A DNA stretch of 64,000 nucleotides from the NCBI GenBank assembly GCA_964500465.1, contig CAZCNB010000001.1, positions 34,567 to 98,566 on the forward strand, written 5' to 3'. The position numbers and the translations under genes are program-made. Below are positions 33,176-57,704 of the stretch, one piece after another; within the stretch, counting starts at the first letter, position 1; every line of letters starts with the position of its first letter. The notes below the pieces were generated by a model that was not told the origin of the DNA, ran no database searches, and saw nothing but the letters and a program-made list of their open reading frames with translations. This stretch comes from an uncultured Candidatus Saccharibacteria bacterium (lineage in GTDB: Bacteria; Patescibacteriota; Minisyncoccia; Phycocordibacterales; UBA9973).

Positions 33176-33214
33176 ACTACGTGGATTATATCACACTATG
33201 ATATAATCCTAAAT

Positions 33215-34081
33215 ATGAAAACACTGCGTGAAGTAATAAATGAAGCGTCCCAAAATGGTGTTGCTATTGGACATTTTAATATCTCAAATTTAGAAGGTCT
33301 ACATGGTATATATCAAGCCGCAAAAAAACTTGGGCTTCCAGTTATTATTGGTTTATCTGAAGGAGAAGAGAAGTTTGTTGGTCGCGAAGAAGCCGTTGCT
33401 CTAATACGTACAATAAGAGATAGGGACAACTATCCAATATATCTAAATGCCGACCATCACGGATCATATGAAAGTGTAAAAGCATGTATAGATGCTGGTT
33501 TTGATATGGCTATTATAGATTGCGCAAAATTACCATTTGAAGAAAATGTAAAAATAACTAAACAGTGTGTAGAGTATGCAAGAAATGTTACCAAAGAAAC
33601 TGGAAGAGATATTCTAATAGAAGCAGAGTTGGGATTTATCGGATCTGGTTCAGACATAAAAGATACAATACCAGAAGGAGCAGGAATACTTACTAATCCA
33701 GAGGATGCAAAAAAATATGTTGAACAAACTGGTATAGATATGTTTGCACCTTCAGTAGGCTCTATACATGGGCTTATCAAAAGTGGGAAGCCGCATATTG
33801 ATTCAGATCTAGTTGCTAAAATCAAAGAAGCAACAGGTGTTCCTCTTGTTCTCCATGGTGGTTCTGGACTTCGCAATGAAGATTTTACAAGTGCAATCGC
33901 TGCCGGAATTTCTGTTGTTCATATAAATTCTGAACTAAGACTTGCATATGAACAAGCTGTTGGAAATTTTATAAAAGAAAATCCTGAAGAAATTGTTCCT
34001 GCAAAGATTTTATCTGGTGCAGTAGATGCAATAGAGAAAATAGTAGAGGATAGATTAAAACTTTTTAACAATATTAAATAA
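33215..34081 (+). CDS. fba: Class II fructose/tagatose-bisphosphate aldolase
   Basis: GVAIGHFNISNLEG, HGGSG zinc-binding motifs; start moved to ATG 33215 (TATAAT at 33202-33207 just upstream). Confidence 0.85.
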   Translation: MKTLREVINEASQNGVAIGHFNISNLEGLHGIYQAAKKLGLPVIIGLSEGEEKFVGREEAVALIRTIRDRDNYPIYLNADHHGSYESVKACIDAGFDMAIIDCAKLPFEENVKITKQCVEYARNVTKETGRDILIEAELGFIGSGSDIKDTIPEGAGILTNPEDAKKYVEQTGIDMFAPSVGSIHGLIKSGKPHIDSDLVAKIKEATGVPLVLHGGSGLRNEDFTSAIAAGISVVHINSELRLAYEQAVGNFIKENPEEIVPAKILSGAVDAIEKIVEDRLKLFNNIK

Positions 34082-53214: not shown

Positions 53215-53337
53215 AGTTATGGATTTAATTGTGAGAATTATCTATATTATAGCATGTTTTTGCCTTATTTGTCAAATAAAATAACCTTATTTTACAGTGT
53301 TTTTTAAGAAAATTATCTAAAATGCTATAATTACTCT

Positions 53338-53952
53338 ATGAAAAAAAATTTAAAAAAAATACTAACCATAGGTTCTTTTGTGGCTTTAATTGTATTTTTA
53401 ATTAGCGGATACATACTAACAAAAGGAAAGGAAACTGAGTTTAATATACTGGAACAAAAAACGGCTGATTATAAAAAAACTACTCTTATAAGAGTATTAA
53501 GATCAGTAATAAGCTTGCCAGATGATAACAACATAACAGTGGGCATGAAAGATGGGGTTGGTAGTTATAAAATTCCTAGTATTAAAAGGGAAGGTGTATT
53601 AAAATTTGAAAATAATTTATTGACTACTAGTTTAGTAAAAGGAACATTTAAAATAGAAGATCCAAGACTAGACGCAATTATTCCTATGGCAGTTAGTTCT
53701 GATTCATTAGATGGATCAAAATACATTATATTATTTCACGATAGGGGGGACTTTGCTATTGAAAAATCGTATGCAAGAATTGGTAATTTAAATACAGAAA
53801 TTAAGAGTATTGAAATAATTGATAAAGACAAAGAAGTAAAAGAGCAGGATTATAGAGTGGTAATAAAATATTTAAATAATGGTAAGGAAAAAGAAACTAC
53901 TATACCAGTAGCTTCTGGGCATTTTGATCCTAGTAGGACGGTATCGAAATAG
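53338..53952 (+). CDS. Hypothetical membrane-anchored/secreted protein
   Basis: N-terminal TM/signal, no motif. Confidence 0.35.
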   Translation: MKKNLKKILTIGSFVALIVFLISGYILTKGKETEFNILEQKTADYKKTTLIRVLRSVISLPDDNNITVGMKDGVGSYKIPSIKREGVLKFENNLLTTSLVKGTFKIEDPRLDAIIPMAVSSDSLDGSKYIILFHDRGDFAIEKSYARIGNLNTEIKSIEIIDKDKEVKEQDYRVVIKYLNNGKEKETTIPVASGHFDPSRTVSK

Positions 53953-54302: not shown

Positions 54303-54500
54303 CTATGCACGTTGTACGTTTACAGCGCTAGGTCCTTTTGCAGTTTCTTCTGTGTCAAAAGTAACAGCATCACCTTCACGTAATTCATCGAATGATACGT
54401 TTACAAGAGAGTTACTGTGAAAGAATAGATCTTTTGCAAGTCCTTCTCCTGTTATGAAACCGAAACCTTTATCAGTAAGCTTTTTTATTGAGCCAGTCAT
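54303..54500 (-). CDS. cspA: Cold-shock protein (CSD)
   Basis: GSIKKLTDKGFGFIT RNP1 and DVSFDEL...VTFD RNP2 regions. Confidence 0.9.
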   Translation of the reverse strand: MTGSIKKLTDKGFGFITGEGLAKDLFFHSNSLVNVSFDELREGDAVTFDTEETAKGPSAVNVQRA

Positions 54501-54767
54501 TGATTTGATTTGTTATAAATTGTTAAAAATAAGATAGATGTATAAAAATCGACTTTTTTCTAGATAGACCTTATGTTCTAAGATATTACAATATTTAAAG
54601 TTTTTTGTCAAAATTTAGTATTATAAGATAATAAAATATTGACAAAATTTGATATAAATGATATTCTTTAAACGTTGAAATACTCCTAAGTGCGTGTATA
54701 TAAGTGTTTCAATCTTTTGCCTGATTTACAGGTAATTATTTATTTTTGAAACACGTAAAATTTAATT

Positions 54768-56048
54768 ATGATTACAAGCAGTAAAAAAAGCTCCAGTAAG
54801 AGCTCATATTCACACGGTCCCAAAAGACCTAATTCTAATTTTAAAAAGAGTTCGAGATCTGAATTTCGTAAAGATAAACCTTCATTTAGAGGTAAACCTT
54901 TTAATAATCGAAATAGTAGGAACAAGAAAAAAAATCTGTTTGAAAGAATAGATGTATCTAGGTTTATAAGCAAAGCAACTATTGTAGAGAAGGAAGAAAT
55001 ATATCTTCCAACTCACACGTTTAGTGATTTTGCTATAGATGCTCGACTAAAAACTGCAATTGCAAACAAACAATATATCTATCCAAGTCCTATTCAAGAT
55101 AAATCCATACCTCATGCACTTGAAGGCAGAGATATTTTAGGTATAGCAAACACTGGCACAGGTAAAACTGCAGCGTTTTTGATACCTATAATAAACAAGA
55201 TATTAAAAGATCATAAAGAAACTGCAATAATAATTGCCCCAACCCGTGAACTTGCGCTTCAAATAGAGAAAGAATTTGTAGAATTTACAAAAGGAATGAA
55301 AATATGGTCGGTATCTTGTGTTGGTGGTGCACCAATATTTGCACAAATAAAAAACCTACGCAGAGGATGTAATGTAGTTATAGGAACACCAGGTAGGTTA
55401 CTTGACCTTGTTAAGCGTAAAGAAATAGATTTATCAGACACTAAAAGTGTTGTGCTTGATGAAGCAGATAGAATGTTAGATATGGGATTCATAGATGATA
55501 TTACATTTCTTCTTGAAAAAACTTCCAAAGATAGGCAAGGCTTCTTCTTCTCAGCTACACTTCCAAAGCCTATAGAAAAGCTAATTGAAAAATTTGCGAA
55601 AGATCCAGTACGTGTGATGGTAAAGACACGTGATACTTCAAAAAATGTTGAACAAGATATTGTTCGTGTCGCTCGTGGAGTAGAGAAAATAGATGTACTT
55701 ACAGAATTGCTTCAAAAAAATGATGAATTCAAGAAAGTTGTAATTTTCTCAGAAATGAAACATGCAGTAGAGAAACTTGCAAACGAGCTAATCAAGAGGG
55801 GATTTAAAGCCGGTAGTATACATGGAGACAAACGACATAATGATAGGCAAAGAACTCTTAAAAAATTTAAAGACAACGAAATAAATATACTAGTTGCTAC
55901 AGATGTAGCTGCAAGGGGTTTAGATATTCCAAACGTGACTCATGTCATAAATTATGAAATACCTCAAACATATGACACCTACGTTCACCGTATAGGCCGT
56001 ACAGGCCGTGCTAGTGCCAAAGGTTTTGCCCTTACTTTTGTTGGTTAA
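54768..56048 (+). CDS. DEAD-box ATP-dependent RNA helicase with basic Ser/Lys-rich N-terminal extension
   Basis: Q-motif PSPIQ, Walker A ANTGTGKTAAF, DEAD (VLDEADRML), SAT, HRIGRTGRA. Confidence 0.9.
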   Translation: MITSSKKSSSKSSYSHGPKRPNSNFKKSSRSEFRKDKPSFRGKPFNNRNSRNKKKNLFERIDVSRFISKATIVEKEEIYLPTHTFSDFAIDARLKTAIANKQYIYPSPIQDKSIPHALEGRDILGIANTGTGKTAAFLIPIINKILKDHKETAIIIAPTRELALQIEKEFVEFTKGMKIWSVSCVGGAPIFAQIKNLRRGCNVVIGTPGRLLDLVKRKEIDLSDTKSVVLDEADRMLDMGFIDDITFLLEKTSKDRQGFFFSATLPKPIEKLIEKFAKDPVRVMVKTRDTSKNVEQDIVRVARGVEKIDVLTELLQKNDEFKKVVIFSEMKHAVEKLANELIKRGFKAGSIHGDKRHNDRQRTLKKFKDNEINILVATDVAARGLDIPNVTHVINYEIPQTYDTYVHRIGRTGRASAKGFALTFVG

Positions 56049-56111
56049 TAATCACGATTTGACATGTAATAATATATATGATAAATTGTAGGTCACTAAA
56101 TTAGTTTCCTT

Positions 56112-56219
56112 ATGCGTTTGAACAACAAGCACAACAGAAAGTCCCCGGATAAAATCCGTGGCAACGGTAGCAAAAGAAAGGGTAAAGGTTTCAAAAACAA
56201 AACAAAACCTTACCGTTAA
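56112..56219 (+). CDS. Candidate micro-ORF, 35 aa, extremely basic (MRLNNKHNRKSPDKIRGNGSKRKGKGFKNKTKPYR)
   Basis: Manual translation; embedded in multi-helix RNA structure and followed by strong terminator; may be non-coding. Confidence 0.25.
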   Translation: MRLNNKHNRKSPDKIRGNGSKRKGKGFKNKTKPYR

Positions 56220-56248
56220 AATTATTAAGCCGGGGGTTCAATCAAACA

Positions 56249-56289
56249 GGTCAGCGAAGCATTATGCGAGCTGGCCTTGTTTTTATTTT
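56249..56289 (+). terminator. Intrinsic terminator
   Basis: ggtcagcgaagcattatgcgagctggcc (7-bp stem with G-U) followed by ttgtttttatttt. Confidence 0.65.
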
Positions 56290-56562
56290 GGTTGACATTT
56301 AACCCTTACGAGTATATAAACAAATTAACTAAATCTTTATGTCATGAGGAAGTCAAACACACGCAAAAAAGTACTCCGCTGGATACTTGCGGATTTGCGA
56401 ATCGCATTCAAAAAAGCAAAAATAAGAAAAAAATTAAATGAAGCTTACCATAAAATGATAAACTCAAGACCAAGAATTTACTGGTAAGACTTCCAAAGGG
56501 GGTCAGTGCATATCTGTTTATGATAGATATATACTGGCCCTTTCTTTTGATATAATATAAAA

Positions 56563-56949
56563 ATGAAAAAGTATGAAAAAGAAGTAAGTAAATATCTTAA
56601 AGAAAGGAGTTGGGACAAGTTAAGGCCAGGGGATGTTGCCAAATCTATTTCAATAGAATCTGCTGAACTTCTTGAAATATTTCAATGGACTAATCCGACA
56701 TTGGAAGAAGTAAAAAAAGATAAGGAAAAATTAAAACAGATCCAAAAAGAACTATCGGATGTACTTATTTATTGTTTTAATATGAGTGTACTTTTGAATT
56801 TAGATACAGGAAAAATACTATTAGAAAAATTAAATCAAGTAAAAAAGAAATATCCTGCACATTTATTTAAAAACAGAGATAAAAATATAGATGCAGGCTC
56901 AGAAGAAATTTATTGGAAAATAAAACAAGCTTATAGAAAAAATAAATAA
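56563..56949 (+). CDS. MazG-like nucleotide pyrophosphohydrolase (YpjD-type)
   Basis: EVSKYLKERSW..ESAELLEIFQW all-alpha NTP-PPase pattern; TATAAT 14 nt upstream of start. Confidence 0.65.
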   Translation: MKKYEKEVSKYLKERSWDKLRPGDVAKSISIESAELLEIFQWTNPTLEEVKKDKEKLKQIQKELSDVLIYCFNMSVLLNLDTGKILLEKLNQVKKKYPAHLFKNRDKNIDAGSEEIYWKIKQAYRKNK

Positions 56950-57011: not shown

Positions 57012-57704
57012 TTAAACGATTTCGTACAATTTACTAAGATCGTTATACTCTACATTTCCCCGGAAATATTCGGCGATTTTAGTGTCATAAGCCGCCAAAG
57101 TTTCAAACGTCCTCAGAAAACCCCGGAAACGCTGTGAGAGCGTTGTGTGGCCATGATGAGCGTTAATCTCACCAATGAGTGAATCGTAAGCTTCAGATGT
57201 GTAATCCGGTACTGTCATGACACGGTGGAAGTTTTTTCCAGCAGCTCGTAAAGCTGAAGGTCCGCCTACATCAATATGCCCTCGTGCCACTTCAGCAGTG
57301 ACATCTGCACTTGATATAACTTTTTCAAACGGGTAGAGATCCACCACCACAAGATCAATTGGCACGGCACTTTCTCTGGCCAAATCAGCCTGGTGAGCTT
57401 CTGAAAAAGTTTCAGTGAGATAACCGAGGAAAAACTTATGGTGGAGAGTTTTCACCAACCCTCCATCTGTTTCCGGCATGCCTGTGTATTGTGAAGCTTC
57501 AAACAGACGGCCTTTTGATGTTGAGAGGTCCATCTCTTTATCGAGATGGGTATAAGTTCCGCCGCTTGAAAAAATTTTCAAACCAGGACAGATACTGAGC
57601 AGTTGCTCAACAAGTTGTCCGAGTTGGCTTTTATCATATACTGATATAAAAGCATGCTTAACAGGTACTAAGTCCTGTATTTTTTTTACGTTTCTGATAG
57701 ACAT
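57012..57704 (-). CDS. Stand-alone IMP cyclohydrolase (PurH N-terminal MGS-like) domain protein
   Basis: FISVYDKS, SSGGT, YTGMPETDGGLVKTLHHK, PIDLVVVDLYPF, IDVGGPSALRAAGKN, TLAAYD align to PurH residues 1-200; no AICAR-transformylase domain; local GC clearly above window average. Confidence 0.8.
   Translation of the reverse strand: MSIRNVKKIQDLVPVKHAFISVYDKSQLGQLVEQLLSICPGLKIFSSGGTYTHLDKEMDLSTSKGRLFEASQYTGMPETDGGLVKTLHHKFFLGYLTETFSEAHQADLARESAVPIDLVVVDLYPFEKVISSADVTAEVARGHIDVGGPSALRAAGKNFHRVMTVPDYTSEAYDSLIGEINAHHGHTTLSQRFRGFLRTFETLAAYDTKIAEYFRGNVEYNDLSKLYEIV

Follow-up and report, generated by a model that had tools for sequence, protein, structure and literature searches.

The 514-nucleotide (nt) interval between a DEAD-box RNA helicase gene and a MazG-like gene, in the 64,000-nt stretch of DNA analysed here (the window, from contig CAZCNB010000001.1), contains an element that is probably a lineage-restricted monocistronic small gene: it would encode a polycationic peptide of 34-38 residues and be expressed as a partly structured messenger RNA (mRNA). 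An earlier note on this DNA had flagged the element as a highly structured stretch ending in a terminator, with four helices around one junction, and had left three readings side by side, namely a structured RNA, a micro-protein gene with a folded mRNA, and a dual-function RNA. Comparison of the sequence with its relatives demonstrates that the promoter, the terminator and the open reading frame (ORF) are conserved, that its codons bear a signature of selection, and that two of the proposed helices, P1 and P2, are lost. On this reading the element represents a new protein family of very small size rather than a novel type of RNA.

Four relatives carry the ORF and are designated here by locus number; two of them are close (L108 and L086) and two deep (L112 and L116). 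L108 was recovered via a second member of the peptide's 90% cluster. In L086, the helicase shares 96% amino acid identity with that of the window, from which four-fold sites have diverged by ~10%. L112 (helicase 77% identical) was found with a covariance model made from the window and L086, at 51 bits and E ~1e-10; the element and the second small unit described below are both present there, flanked by a hypothetical gene on one side and the same MazG-like gene on the other. L116 came from an exhaustive profile search with HMMER, run over 1.84 billion protein representatives, in which P0001, P0123 and P0127 were the only family members returned, besides one repeat-protein artefact; its ORF has other neighbouring genes, a promoter of its own and a terminator unrelated to that of the window. 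A further ~10 contigs of the window's species, collected via identical CspA and helicase proteins, have intervals 100% identical to that of the window and are hence uninformative; the ORF had been called as a gene in 2 of the ~10 contigs of this species. From the profile search, the peptides form a real but very small family.

The ORF (ORF1; 56112-56219, + strand) consists of 35 codons and a stop, and its predicted product, MRLNNKHNRKSPDKIRGNGSKRKGKGFKNKTKPYR, is a Lys/Arg/Gly/Asn-rich peptide with 14 Lys or Arg residues, 1 acidic residue and a net charge of ~+13. When the transcript body was shuffled with its dinucleotides preserved, an ATG-initiated ORF of at least 35 codons arose in just 1% of cases, so ORF1 is itself unusual for this composition. 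The earlier note had asked whether the frame is broken in relatives; it is unbroken in all four, and both frame and start context are preserved in the five sequences. The L108 peptide (38 residues) equals the window sequence except for N29D and an extension to ...PYRKNY, while L086 has 37 residues (MSRNKHDKKSKDKIRGNGSKRKGKGFKDRAKPYRENY), L112 has 34 (MARNKHDRRSTTKNNGTKRKQGVKSKNTPYRKNY) and L116 has 38 (MAANKHDKKSPDKRSGNGTKRKKGVKNAKTPYRKYYGQ). An N-terminal M-x-(x)-N-K-H and a C-terminal P-Y-R-(K/E)-(N/Y)-Y are common to the homologues. In L108, L086 and L112 the ORF ends at the next in-frame TAA (window position 56226-28), after K/E-N-Y, and in L116 it ends at a TAG two codons beyond that stop.

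In a protein-guided codon alignment of the five sequences, all gaps within ORF1 are whole codons. In-frame synonymous divergence (pS) is 0.70-0.77 against a nonsynonymous divergence (pN) of 0.24-0.27 in every deep pair; the shifted frames of the same alignment give a pS of 0.18-0.30 and a pN of 0.28-0.42, with no synonymous excess. Omega comes to ~0.15-0.2 when L112 is paired with the window, L108 or L086, the deep pairs for which it was calculated, and the pairs that include L116 have a pS/pN imbalance like that of the L112 pairs. Peptide identity between lineages is 58-65% with saturated synonymous sites (pS 0.7), and codons have been switched with the amino acid retained (Ser TCC to AGC, Arg AGA to CGT or CGC). 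Because these multi-base Ser and Arg switches are hard to explain otherwise, selection is likely to act on the amino acids of ORF1. With the frame intact and this signature of synonymous over nonsynonymous change, the earlier suggestion of a micro-protein gene with a folded mRNA is the one that the comparison supports.

Three other interpretations of the coding content were rejected. The frame +2 ORF (56158-56295) crosses the terminator; in L086 it is cut short, and L112 does not keep it open. A hydrophobic antisense ORF (56096-56200, - strand) might be read as a type-I toxin; no promoter was seen for it, and the Ser/Arg switches are conservative on the plus strand only. Derivation of ORF1 from a detached C-terminal tail of the helicase was also dismissed, for all 120 helicase relatives end in ...ALTFV(G/S), and it is at the N terminus that they vary in length.

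The element is considered a self-contained transcription unit of ~190 nt because a sigma-70-type promoter lies directly upstream and a terminator closes it. The promoter, which the earlier note did not mention, occupies 56059-56087 (+ strand), with a -35 TTGACA at 56059-64, a 17-nt spacer and an extended -10 TGaTAAATT at 56079-87; a consensus scan gave 10 of 12 matches with the TG present. The -35 TTGACA, the TG and the -10 TAnnnT are retained in L086, L112 and L116, in which the spacer and flanks differ by at least 20%, and conserved hexamers at 17-nt spacing place the promoter in the sigma-70 type. Transcription would begin, as estimated from the sequence, such that a leader of ~18 nt (56094-56111, + strand; CACUAAAUUAGUUUCCUU) precedes the start codon. 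The leader contains CACUAAAU in both L086 and L112 and CAUCAAAUUA in L116. It lacks a Shine-Dalgarno sequence, which is no objection to translation because 59 of the 60 long ORFs (at least 120 codons) in the window likewise lack one and only 1 has it. In many genes of the window the ATG follows 5-10 nt after a TGnTATAAT box (for example at 56548-56565, 33190-33217 and 53313-53340), and leaderless or near-leaderless mRNAs are suggested to be widespread in this genome. The shared leader motif ACTAAAT was tried as a genome-wide signal and rejected, as it is not enriched (14 found against 25 expected).

The intrinsic terminator (56244-56289, + strand) has a GGUCAGC/GCUGGCC core (56249-55/56270-76) and an inner GCA-UUA-UGC mini-hairpin, and is followed by UUGUUUUUAUUUU. 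Taken alone it folds at -18.6 kcal/mol (z = -4.2). Its pairing is intact in the window, L108, L086 and L112, with one two-sided and two one-sided changes among these four sequences, and L116 has an unrelated hairpin and a U6 tract at the same position (z = -3.7). A GC-rich hairpin, a U-tract, a location at the 3' end of the unit and maintenance in relatives identify it as an intrinsic terminator; a simple terminator scanner missed it, its loop being longer than 8 nt.

The features listed in the earlier note (P1, P2, P3, the terminator, the ATG-initiated frame and the 35-residue peptide) are all present at the positions reported here, and RNAfold of 56090-56290 reproduced the four-helix fold exactly, at -53.3 kcal/mol (z = -3.6, with none of 200 shuffles as good; z = -1.9 for the opposite strand). 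The 5' strand of P1, AGUCCCCGG (56140-56148, + strand), coincides with Ser-Pro-Asp codons and pairs with CCGGGGGUU (56230-38); in the RNAfold structure, GUCCCCGG is paired to CCGGGGGU. P2 is the GGCA hairpin CCGU-GGCA-ACGG (56156-56167, + strand), within codons for Ile-Arg-Gly-Asn-Gly. P3, in the second half of ORF1, is the hairpin GGUAA-A-GGUUU / AAACC-UUACC (56181-56214, + strand), whose CA-rich loop measures 13 nt. The description of the element as highly structured holds for the whole transcript, but not equally for its parts: with the terminator left out, z for the body is -2.3 for the window sequence and -1.5 for that of L086. Since the terminator alone reaches -4.2 and the body is moderate, much of the fold signal of the window belongs to the terminator.

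If the element were a non-coding small RNA (sRNA) organized as a four-way junction, ORF1 would be a by-product of A-rich, T-poor composition. The minimum free energy (MFE) fold and its z are what such an RNA would give; in the closest comparison the P2 and P3 stems have 0 substitutions against 9-11 in loops and junctions, and an omega of ~0.8 for L108 against L086 is also in its favour. Comparison across relatives nevertheless contradicts this explanation, which we regard as very improbable. P1 pairs only in the window and L108. L086 has GUCCAAGG (CC to AA) opposite an unchanged CCGGGGGU, leaving two central mismatches without compensation; L112 has GUCAACAA at the 5' position and no complementary partner; and L116 is without the 3' strand altogether. 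Even on an alignment fitted to the structure of the earlier note, 6 of 10 P1 pairs are broken in at least one sequence. P2 is invariant in the window, L108 and L086, with no covariation; in L112 the covariance model has gaps there, and the codon alignment puts a two-codon deletion at this place. RNAalifold drops both P1 and P2, retaining P3, the terminator and a 4-bp CGGC/GCCG helix, and the MFE fold of L086 has a long-range helix different from that of the window. Moreover, the ORF is found in all lineages with its frame-specific synonymous excess.

Known RNA families give no support to a structured non-coding RNA either. Rfam 15 at the gathering threshold over the whole window detected two tRNAs elsewhere and none on the element, and at E<=10 over 55950-56650 only chance-level hits, the best on the element being sau-41 with 20.9 bits against a gathering threshold of 80. 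ARAGORN found no tmRNA. These scans agree with the earlier failure to match the element to RNase P, SRP, tmRNA or 6S by eye. The proposed junction of four helices is therefore not upheld as a structured RNA, P1 being broken or absent in L086, L112 and L116 and P2 deleted in L112. Compensatory changes, which the earlier note had named as the check on its helices, were found in the P3 inner helix and the terminator but not in P1 or P2. Junctions drawn from single-sequence folds may fail on comparison, even with a 96%-identical relative.

P3 folds in all four relatives. Its inner helix is GGUUU/AAACC in the clade of the window versus GGGUGU/ACACCC in L112 and L116, with two pairs changed on both sides (U-A to G-C) and the pairing complete throughout. 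The local z lies between -2.1 and -2.5 except in L116, where it is -0.75, and the sequence of the CA-rich loop is not conserved. Past the stop codon, the 3' untranslated region (UTR) contains GCCGGGGGUUC (56229-56239, + strand), which corresponds to the P1 3' strand in the window, and its GCCG is able to pair with CGGC/CGGU of the Asn-Gly codons. We take P3 and GCCGGGGGUUC to be mRNA-level features for stability, 3'-end protection or translation rate, rather than parts of a ribozyme-like or riboswitch-like fold.

Several observations weigh against regarding the element simply as a small protein gene, and two of them concern the RNA. The compensatory changes in P3 alter amino acids on both arms (F to V together with K to T), and the 11-nt GCCGGGGGUUC is invariant in 4 of 5 sequences (window, L108, L086 and L112, where it is located at 2481-2491) and absent in L116. 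The invariance of this motif extends across saturated synonymous divergence, although its P1 partner varies. Because P3 is compensated in both arms at the cost of amino acids and the 3'-UTR motif does not vary, some selection on the RNA itself is indicated. The same two facts could be explained by a dual-function RNA, in which the peptide is accompanied by a regulatory RNA acting through P3, GCCGGGGGUUC or single-stranded CA-rich stretches, as in SgrS/SgrT and RNAIII/hld. The 3' 75 nt, with 1 change between the window and L086 against ~10% at four-fold sites, point in that direction; however, other intergenic DNA is equally conserved in this comparison, the 205 nt that precede the helicase having 4 changes. 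The candidate seeds vary, L086 having 3 changes in the CA-rich loop and L112 and L116 a loop of another sequence, and the 5' CA-rich stretch is coding and variable. The 3'-UTR motif is missing from L116, no target was identified, and no evidence specifically favours a dual-function RNA, so that we judge it unlikely.

The remaining objections concern the peptide. The codon alignment behind the pS and pN values was protein-guided, which favours the ORF frame, and the five sequences are effectively three independent lineages. In the closest pair, L108 and L086, omega is the ~0.8 mentioned above and the substitutions are even across codon positions, so the short-term constraint on the peptide looks weak. 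A derived nonsense change in the window's species has created a TAA at 56217-19 (AAA or GAA in the others), with loss of the three conserved C-terminal residues (K/E-N-Y). Finally, the activity proposed for the peptide below derives from composition alone. Site 56217 is itself variable at three states: T in the window, A in L108 and G in L086, giving a stop, Lys and Glu, respectively.

The nonsense change and the omega of the closest pair would also fit a young, decaying or functionless ORF that persists by chance and composition. The family is tiny and patchy, and relatives at 80-90% identity have no such element after the helicase: it is missing there in the closest two of 80 fetched loci (80-81% identity) and likewise in the 90% and 86% relatives L087-L091, and blastn and nhmmer searches of the element against all 80 helicase-homologue loci gave no match. 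Peptide identity of 58-65% at saturated synonymous sites and the switches among six-fold codons argue against a functionless ORF, to which we give almost no credence.

For the small protein gene, the following sequence of events is proposed. The sigma-70-type promoter at 56059-87 would direct a transcript of ~190 nt that ends at the intrinsic terminator at 56244-89, and a ribosome would translate ORF1 after the ~18-nt leader without a Shine-Dalgarno sequence; the start site and translation are predictions. The product under selection would be the 35-residue peptide (34-38 residues in relatives). The mRNA would also carry the conserved P3 hairpin, in the second half of the coding sequence, and, in most members, the GCCGGGGGUUC motif just past the stop codon.

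The peptide itself may be a disordered polycation that binds RNA (the ribosome or ribosomal RNA, rRNA) or another nucleic acid, as its composition and AlphaFold model suggest; the model has no DSSP secondary structure and a mean pLDDT of 62. Neighbouring genes for a cold-shock protein and a DEAD-box helicase are consistent with a nucleic-acid-binding role, but do not prove it. The earlier note had compared the peptide with ribosomal proteins bL34 and bL35. That likeness is compositional only: no Pfam family was matched at E<=0.1 by the window peptide and no Pfam or NCBIfam family at E<=10 by its relatives, and phmmer and profile searches of all PDB chains, ribosomes included, returned nothing relevant at E<=10, no solved ribosomal chain among them.

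Several further searches yielded no homologue. A word-index search with the 35-residue peptide found only itself. A scan of JGI metagenomes with the 18-mer CCGGGGGTTCAATCAAAC gave no homologue, only six chance matches in contigs of high GC content; the 18-mer is not identical in L112. Scans of viral contigs with a 19-mer and with the protein of the second small unit found nothing, and blastn against phages gave a 25-nt chance match only. The literature retrieved on this subject was limited to general background on small proteins and non-coding RNA discovery.

Directly downstream is a second unit (56292-56548, + strand), with a promoter TTGACA(56292)-17-TATAAA, ORF2 at 56344-56487 and a terminator at 56498-56548. 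Its leader is ~16 nt, and its layout of promoter, leader, small ORF and terminator is like that of unit 1; the terminator is strong, and the unit as a whole has a z of -5.8. ORF2 would encode a basic protein of 47 residues, MRKSNTRKKVLRWILADLRIAFKKAKIRKKLNEAYHKMINSRPRIYW. Between the window and L086 the ORF has 5 nucleotide changes, one of them an AGA to CGT switch, yet all 5 are synonymous and the protein is unaltered; on account of this, ORF2 is certainly coding, and its shared layout favours translation of ORF1 without a Shine-Dalgarno sequence as well. Homologues precede the same MazG-like gene in L112 (49% identity) and L109 (59%), and L113 has a distant one. In the AlphaFold model, residues 5-41 form one long helix (pLDDT 82). 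ORF2 had not been called as a gene on any fetched contig and has no family match, and a word-index search with its 47-residue product found nothing.

The arrangement of the two units invites the idea that ORF1 is a leader peptide of an attenuator, its translation controlling read-through of the terminator into ORF2 and the MazG-like gene. The short ORF does end ~25 nt before the terminator, and co-oriented genes follow in the window, L108, L086 and L112. Yet the downstream unit has a promoter of its own, with conserved hexamers and a variable spacer, and in L116 the gene past the terminator is convergent, so that there is nothing downstream to regulate. L109 has ORF2 and the MazG-like gene without ORF1, and no conserved antiterminator alternative was found. 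Contradicted on these points, an attenuator appears extremely improbable.

Units 1 and 2 were also compared as possible paralogues or as repeats found elsewhere in the window, and this was rejected for want of significant matches. Local resemblances exist: the unit 2 terminator at 56498-56512 (UUCCAAAGGGGGUCAGUG...) resembles the unit 1 terminator of L112 at 2491-2505 (UUCCAAAGGGGUCAGC...), and the promoter and leader regions of units 1 and 2 both contain TTGACATTTA and ACUAAAUC. There are thus hints of duplication or recombination between the two small-gene cassettes.

Other small Lys-rich ORFs were seen near the helicase and cold-shock genes of relatives, at L109 2876-3040, L113 8000-8195 and L114 5403-5495. 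In the helicase-MazG interval of L109, a 54-residue ORF (MGKKKRKKHSKKKWDKGL...RKQIYW...) seems, by eye, to have a promoter and a terminator of its own. The interval is suggested to be a variable island of small basic-protein genes.

A more far-reaching interpretation may be formulated, although we allow it only a small chance. ORF1, possibly together with the 47-residue protein, would be a lineage-specific microprotein of Paceibacteria-type Patescibacteria that binds RNA or the ribosome; it would be expressed from a variable island of small basic genes beside cold-shock and helicase genes, and its mRNA would contain a functional RNA element (P3 and GCCGGGGGUUC), making it a true dual-function transcript. 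To our knowledge, no sRNA or microprotein has been characterised in Paceibacteria-type Patescibacteria.

The window has a G+C content of 33%, and the genomes nearest to it are metagenome-assembled Patescibacteria (Minisyncoccia/Paceibacteria, 'Nomurabacteria'-like); in the initial search of 80 loci, the helicase protein of the best genome match was 80% identical. The helicase gene lies at 54768-56048 (+ strand), the MazG-like gene at 56563-56949 (+ strand), and a CspA-type cold-shock gene at 54303-54500 (- strand), divergent and upstream of the helicase. The CspA-like and helicase genes have divergent, back-to-back TTGACA promoters at 54583-54667. The helicase leader is ~100 nt long and 98% conserved in L086, and may be a cold-shock-type regulatory 5' UTR. 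The N-terminal basic low-complexity tail of the helicase evolves much faster than its core, with 30 of 66 differing bases in the first 50 codons. A short PurH-like gene (57012-57704, - strand; 230 aa), comprising an MGS-like domain and the start of AICARFT/IMPCHase, sits between the MazG-like gene and an ornithine-cyclodeaminase-like gene in the window; it is missing at L108 1384-1588, in a strain otherwise near-identical to the window.

Organisms of the candidate phyla radiation (CPR) have minimal gene content, and their small proteins are essentially unannotated. At this locus a candidate novel structured RNA has been replaced by a concrete, testable small-protein family in the CPR. In genomes that are A-rich and do not use Shine-Dalgarno sequences, an intergenic transcript that appears well folded can prove to be a coding gene. 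The interval between helicase and MazG-like genes is, moreover, a possible hotspot of fast-evolving small basic proteins in CPR genomes.

Comparison with known systems helps to place the ORF1 transcript. Dual-function sRNAs such as SgrS/SgrT, RNAIII/hld and SR1/SR1P combine a peptide with a regulatory RNA. The ORF1 transcript resembles them in its length of ~200 nt, its terminator-defined end, and its combination of a small ORF with P3 and a conserved untranslated motif. Unlike them, it has no conserved single-stranded seed or known target, its ORF fills most of the transcript, and its conservation at the RNA level goes no further than a single hairpin, the terminator and a motif of 11 nt.

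Very small basic ribosome-associated proteins (bTHX, bS22, bL37 and Sra) and the small ribosomal proteins bL34 and bL36 form a second group for comparison. In common with these, the ORF1 peptide falls within 25-45 residues, is rich in Lys and Arg and has no predicted autonomous fold; the RNA-handling genes of its locus (CspA-like and DEAD-box helicase) are counted as a further likeness to ribosome-associated proteins. It differs from the latter in having no similarity to any PDB chain at E<=10, and from core ribosomal proteins in a distribution that is far too narrow and in the lack of a Pfam or NCBIfam ribosomal-protein match.

Finally, Ribo-seq in mycobacteria and E. coli has revealed small proteins of up to 50 residues encoded by unannotated short ORFs (general background: PMC4633059, PMC11796252). 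Many of those are membrane proteins, unlike the ORF1 peptide, which is an extreme polycation without a predicted fold and is known here from sequence alone. In other respects ORF1 is like them: it is short and stands alone between a promoter and a terminator of its own, gene finders miss it or call it inconsistently, and it has no domain match and a narrow phylogenetic range.

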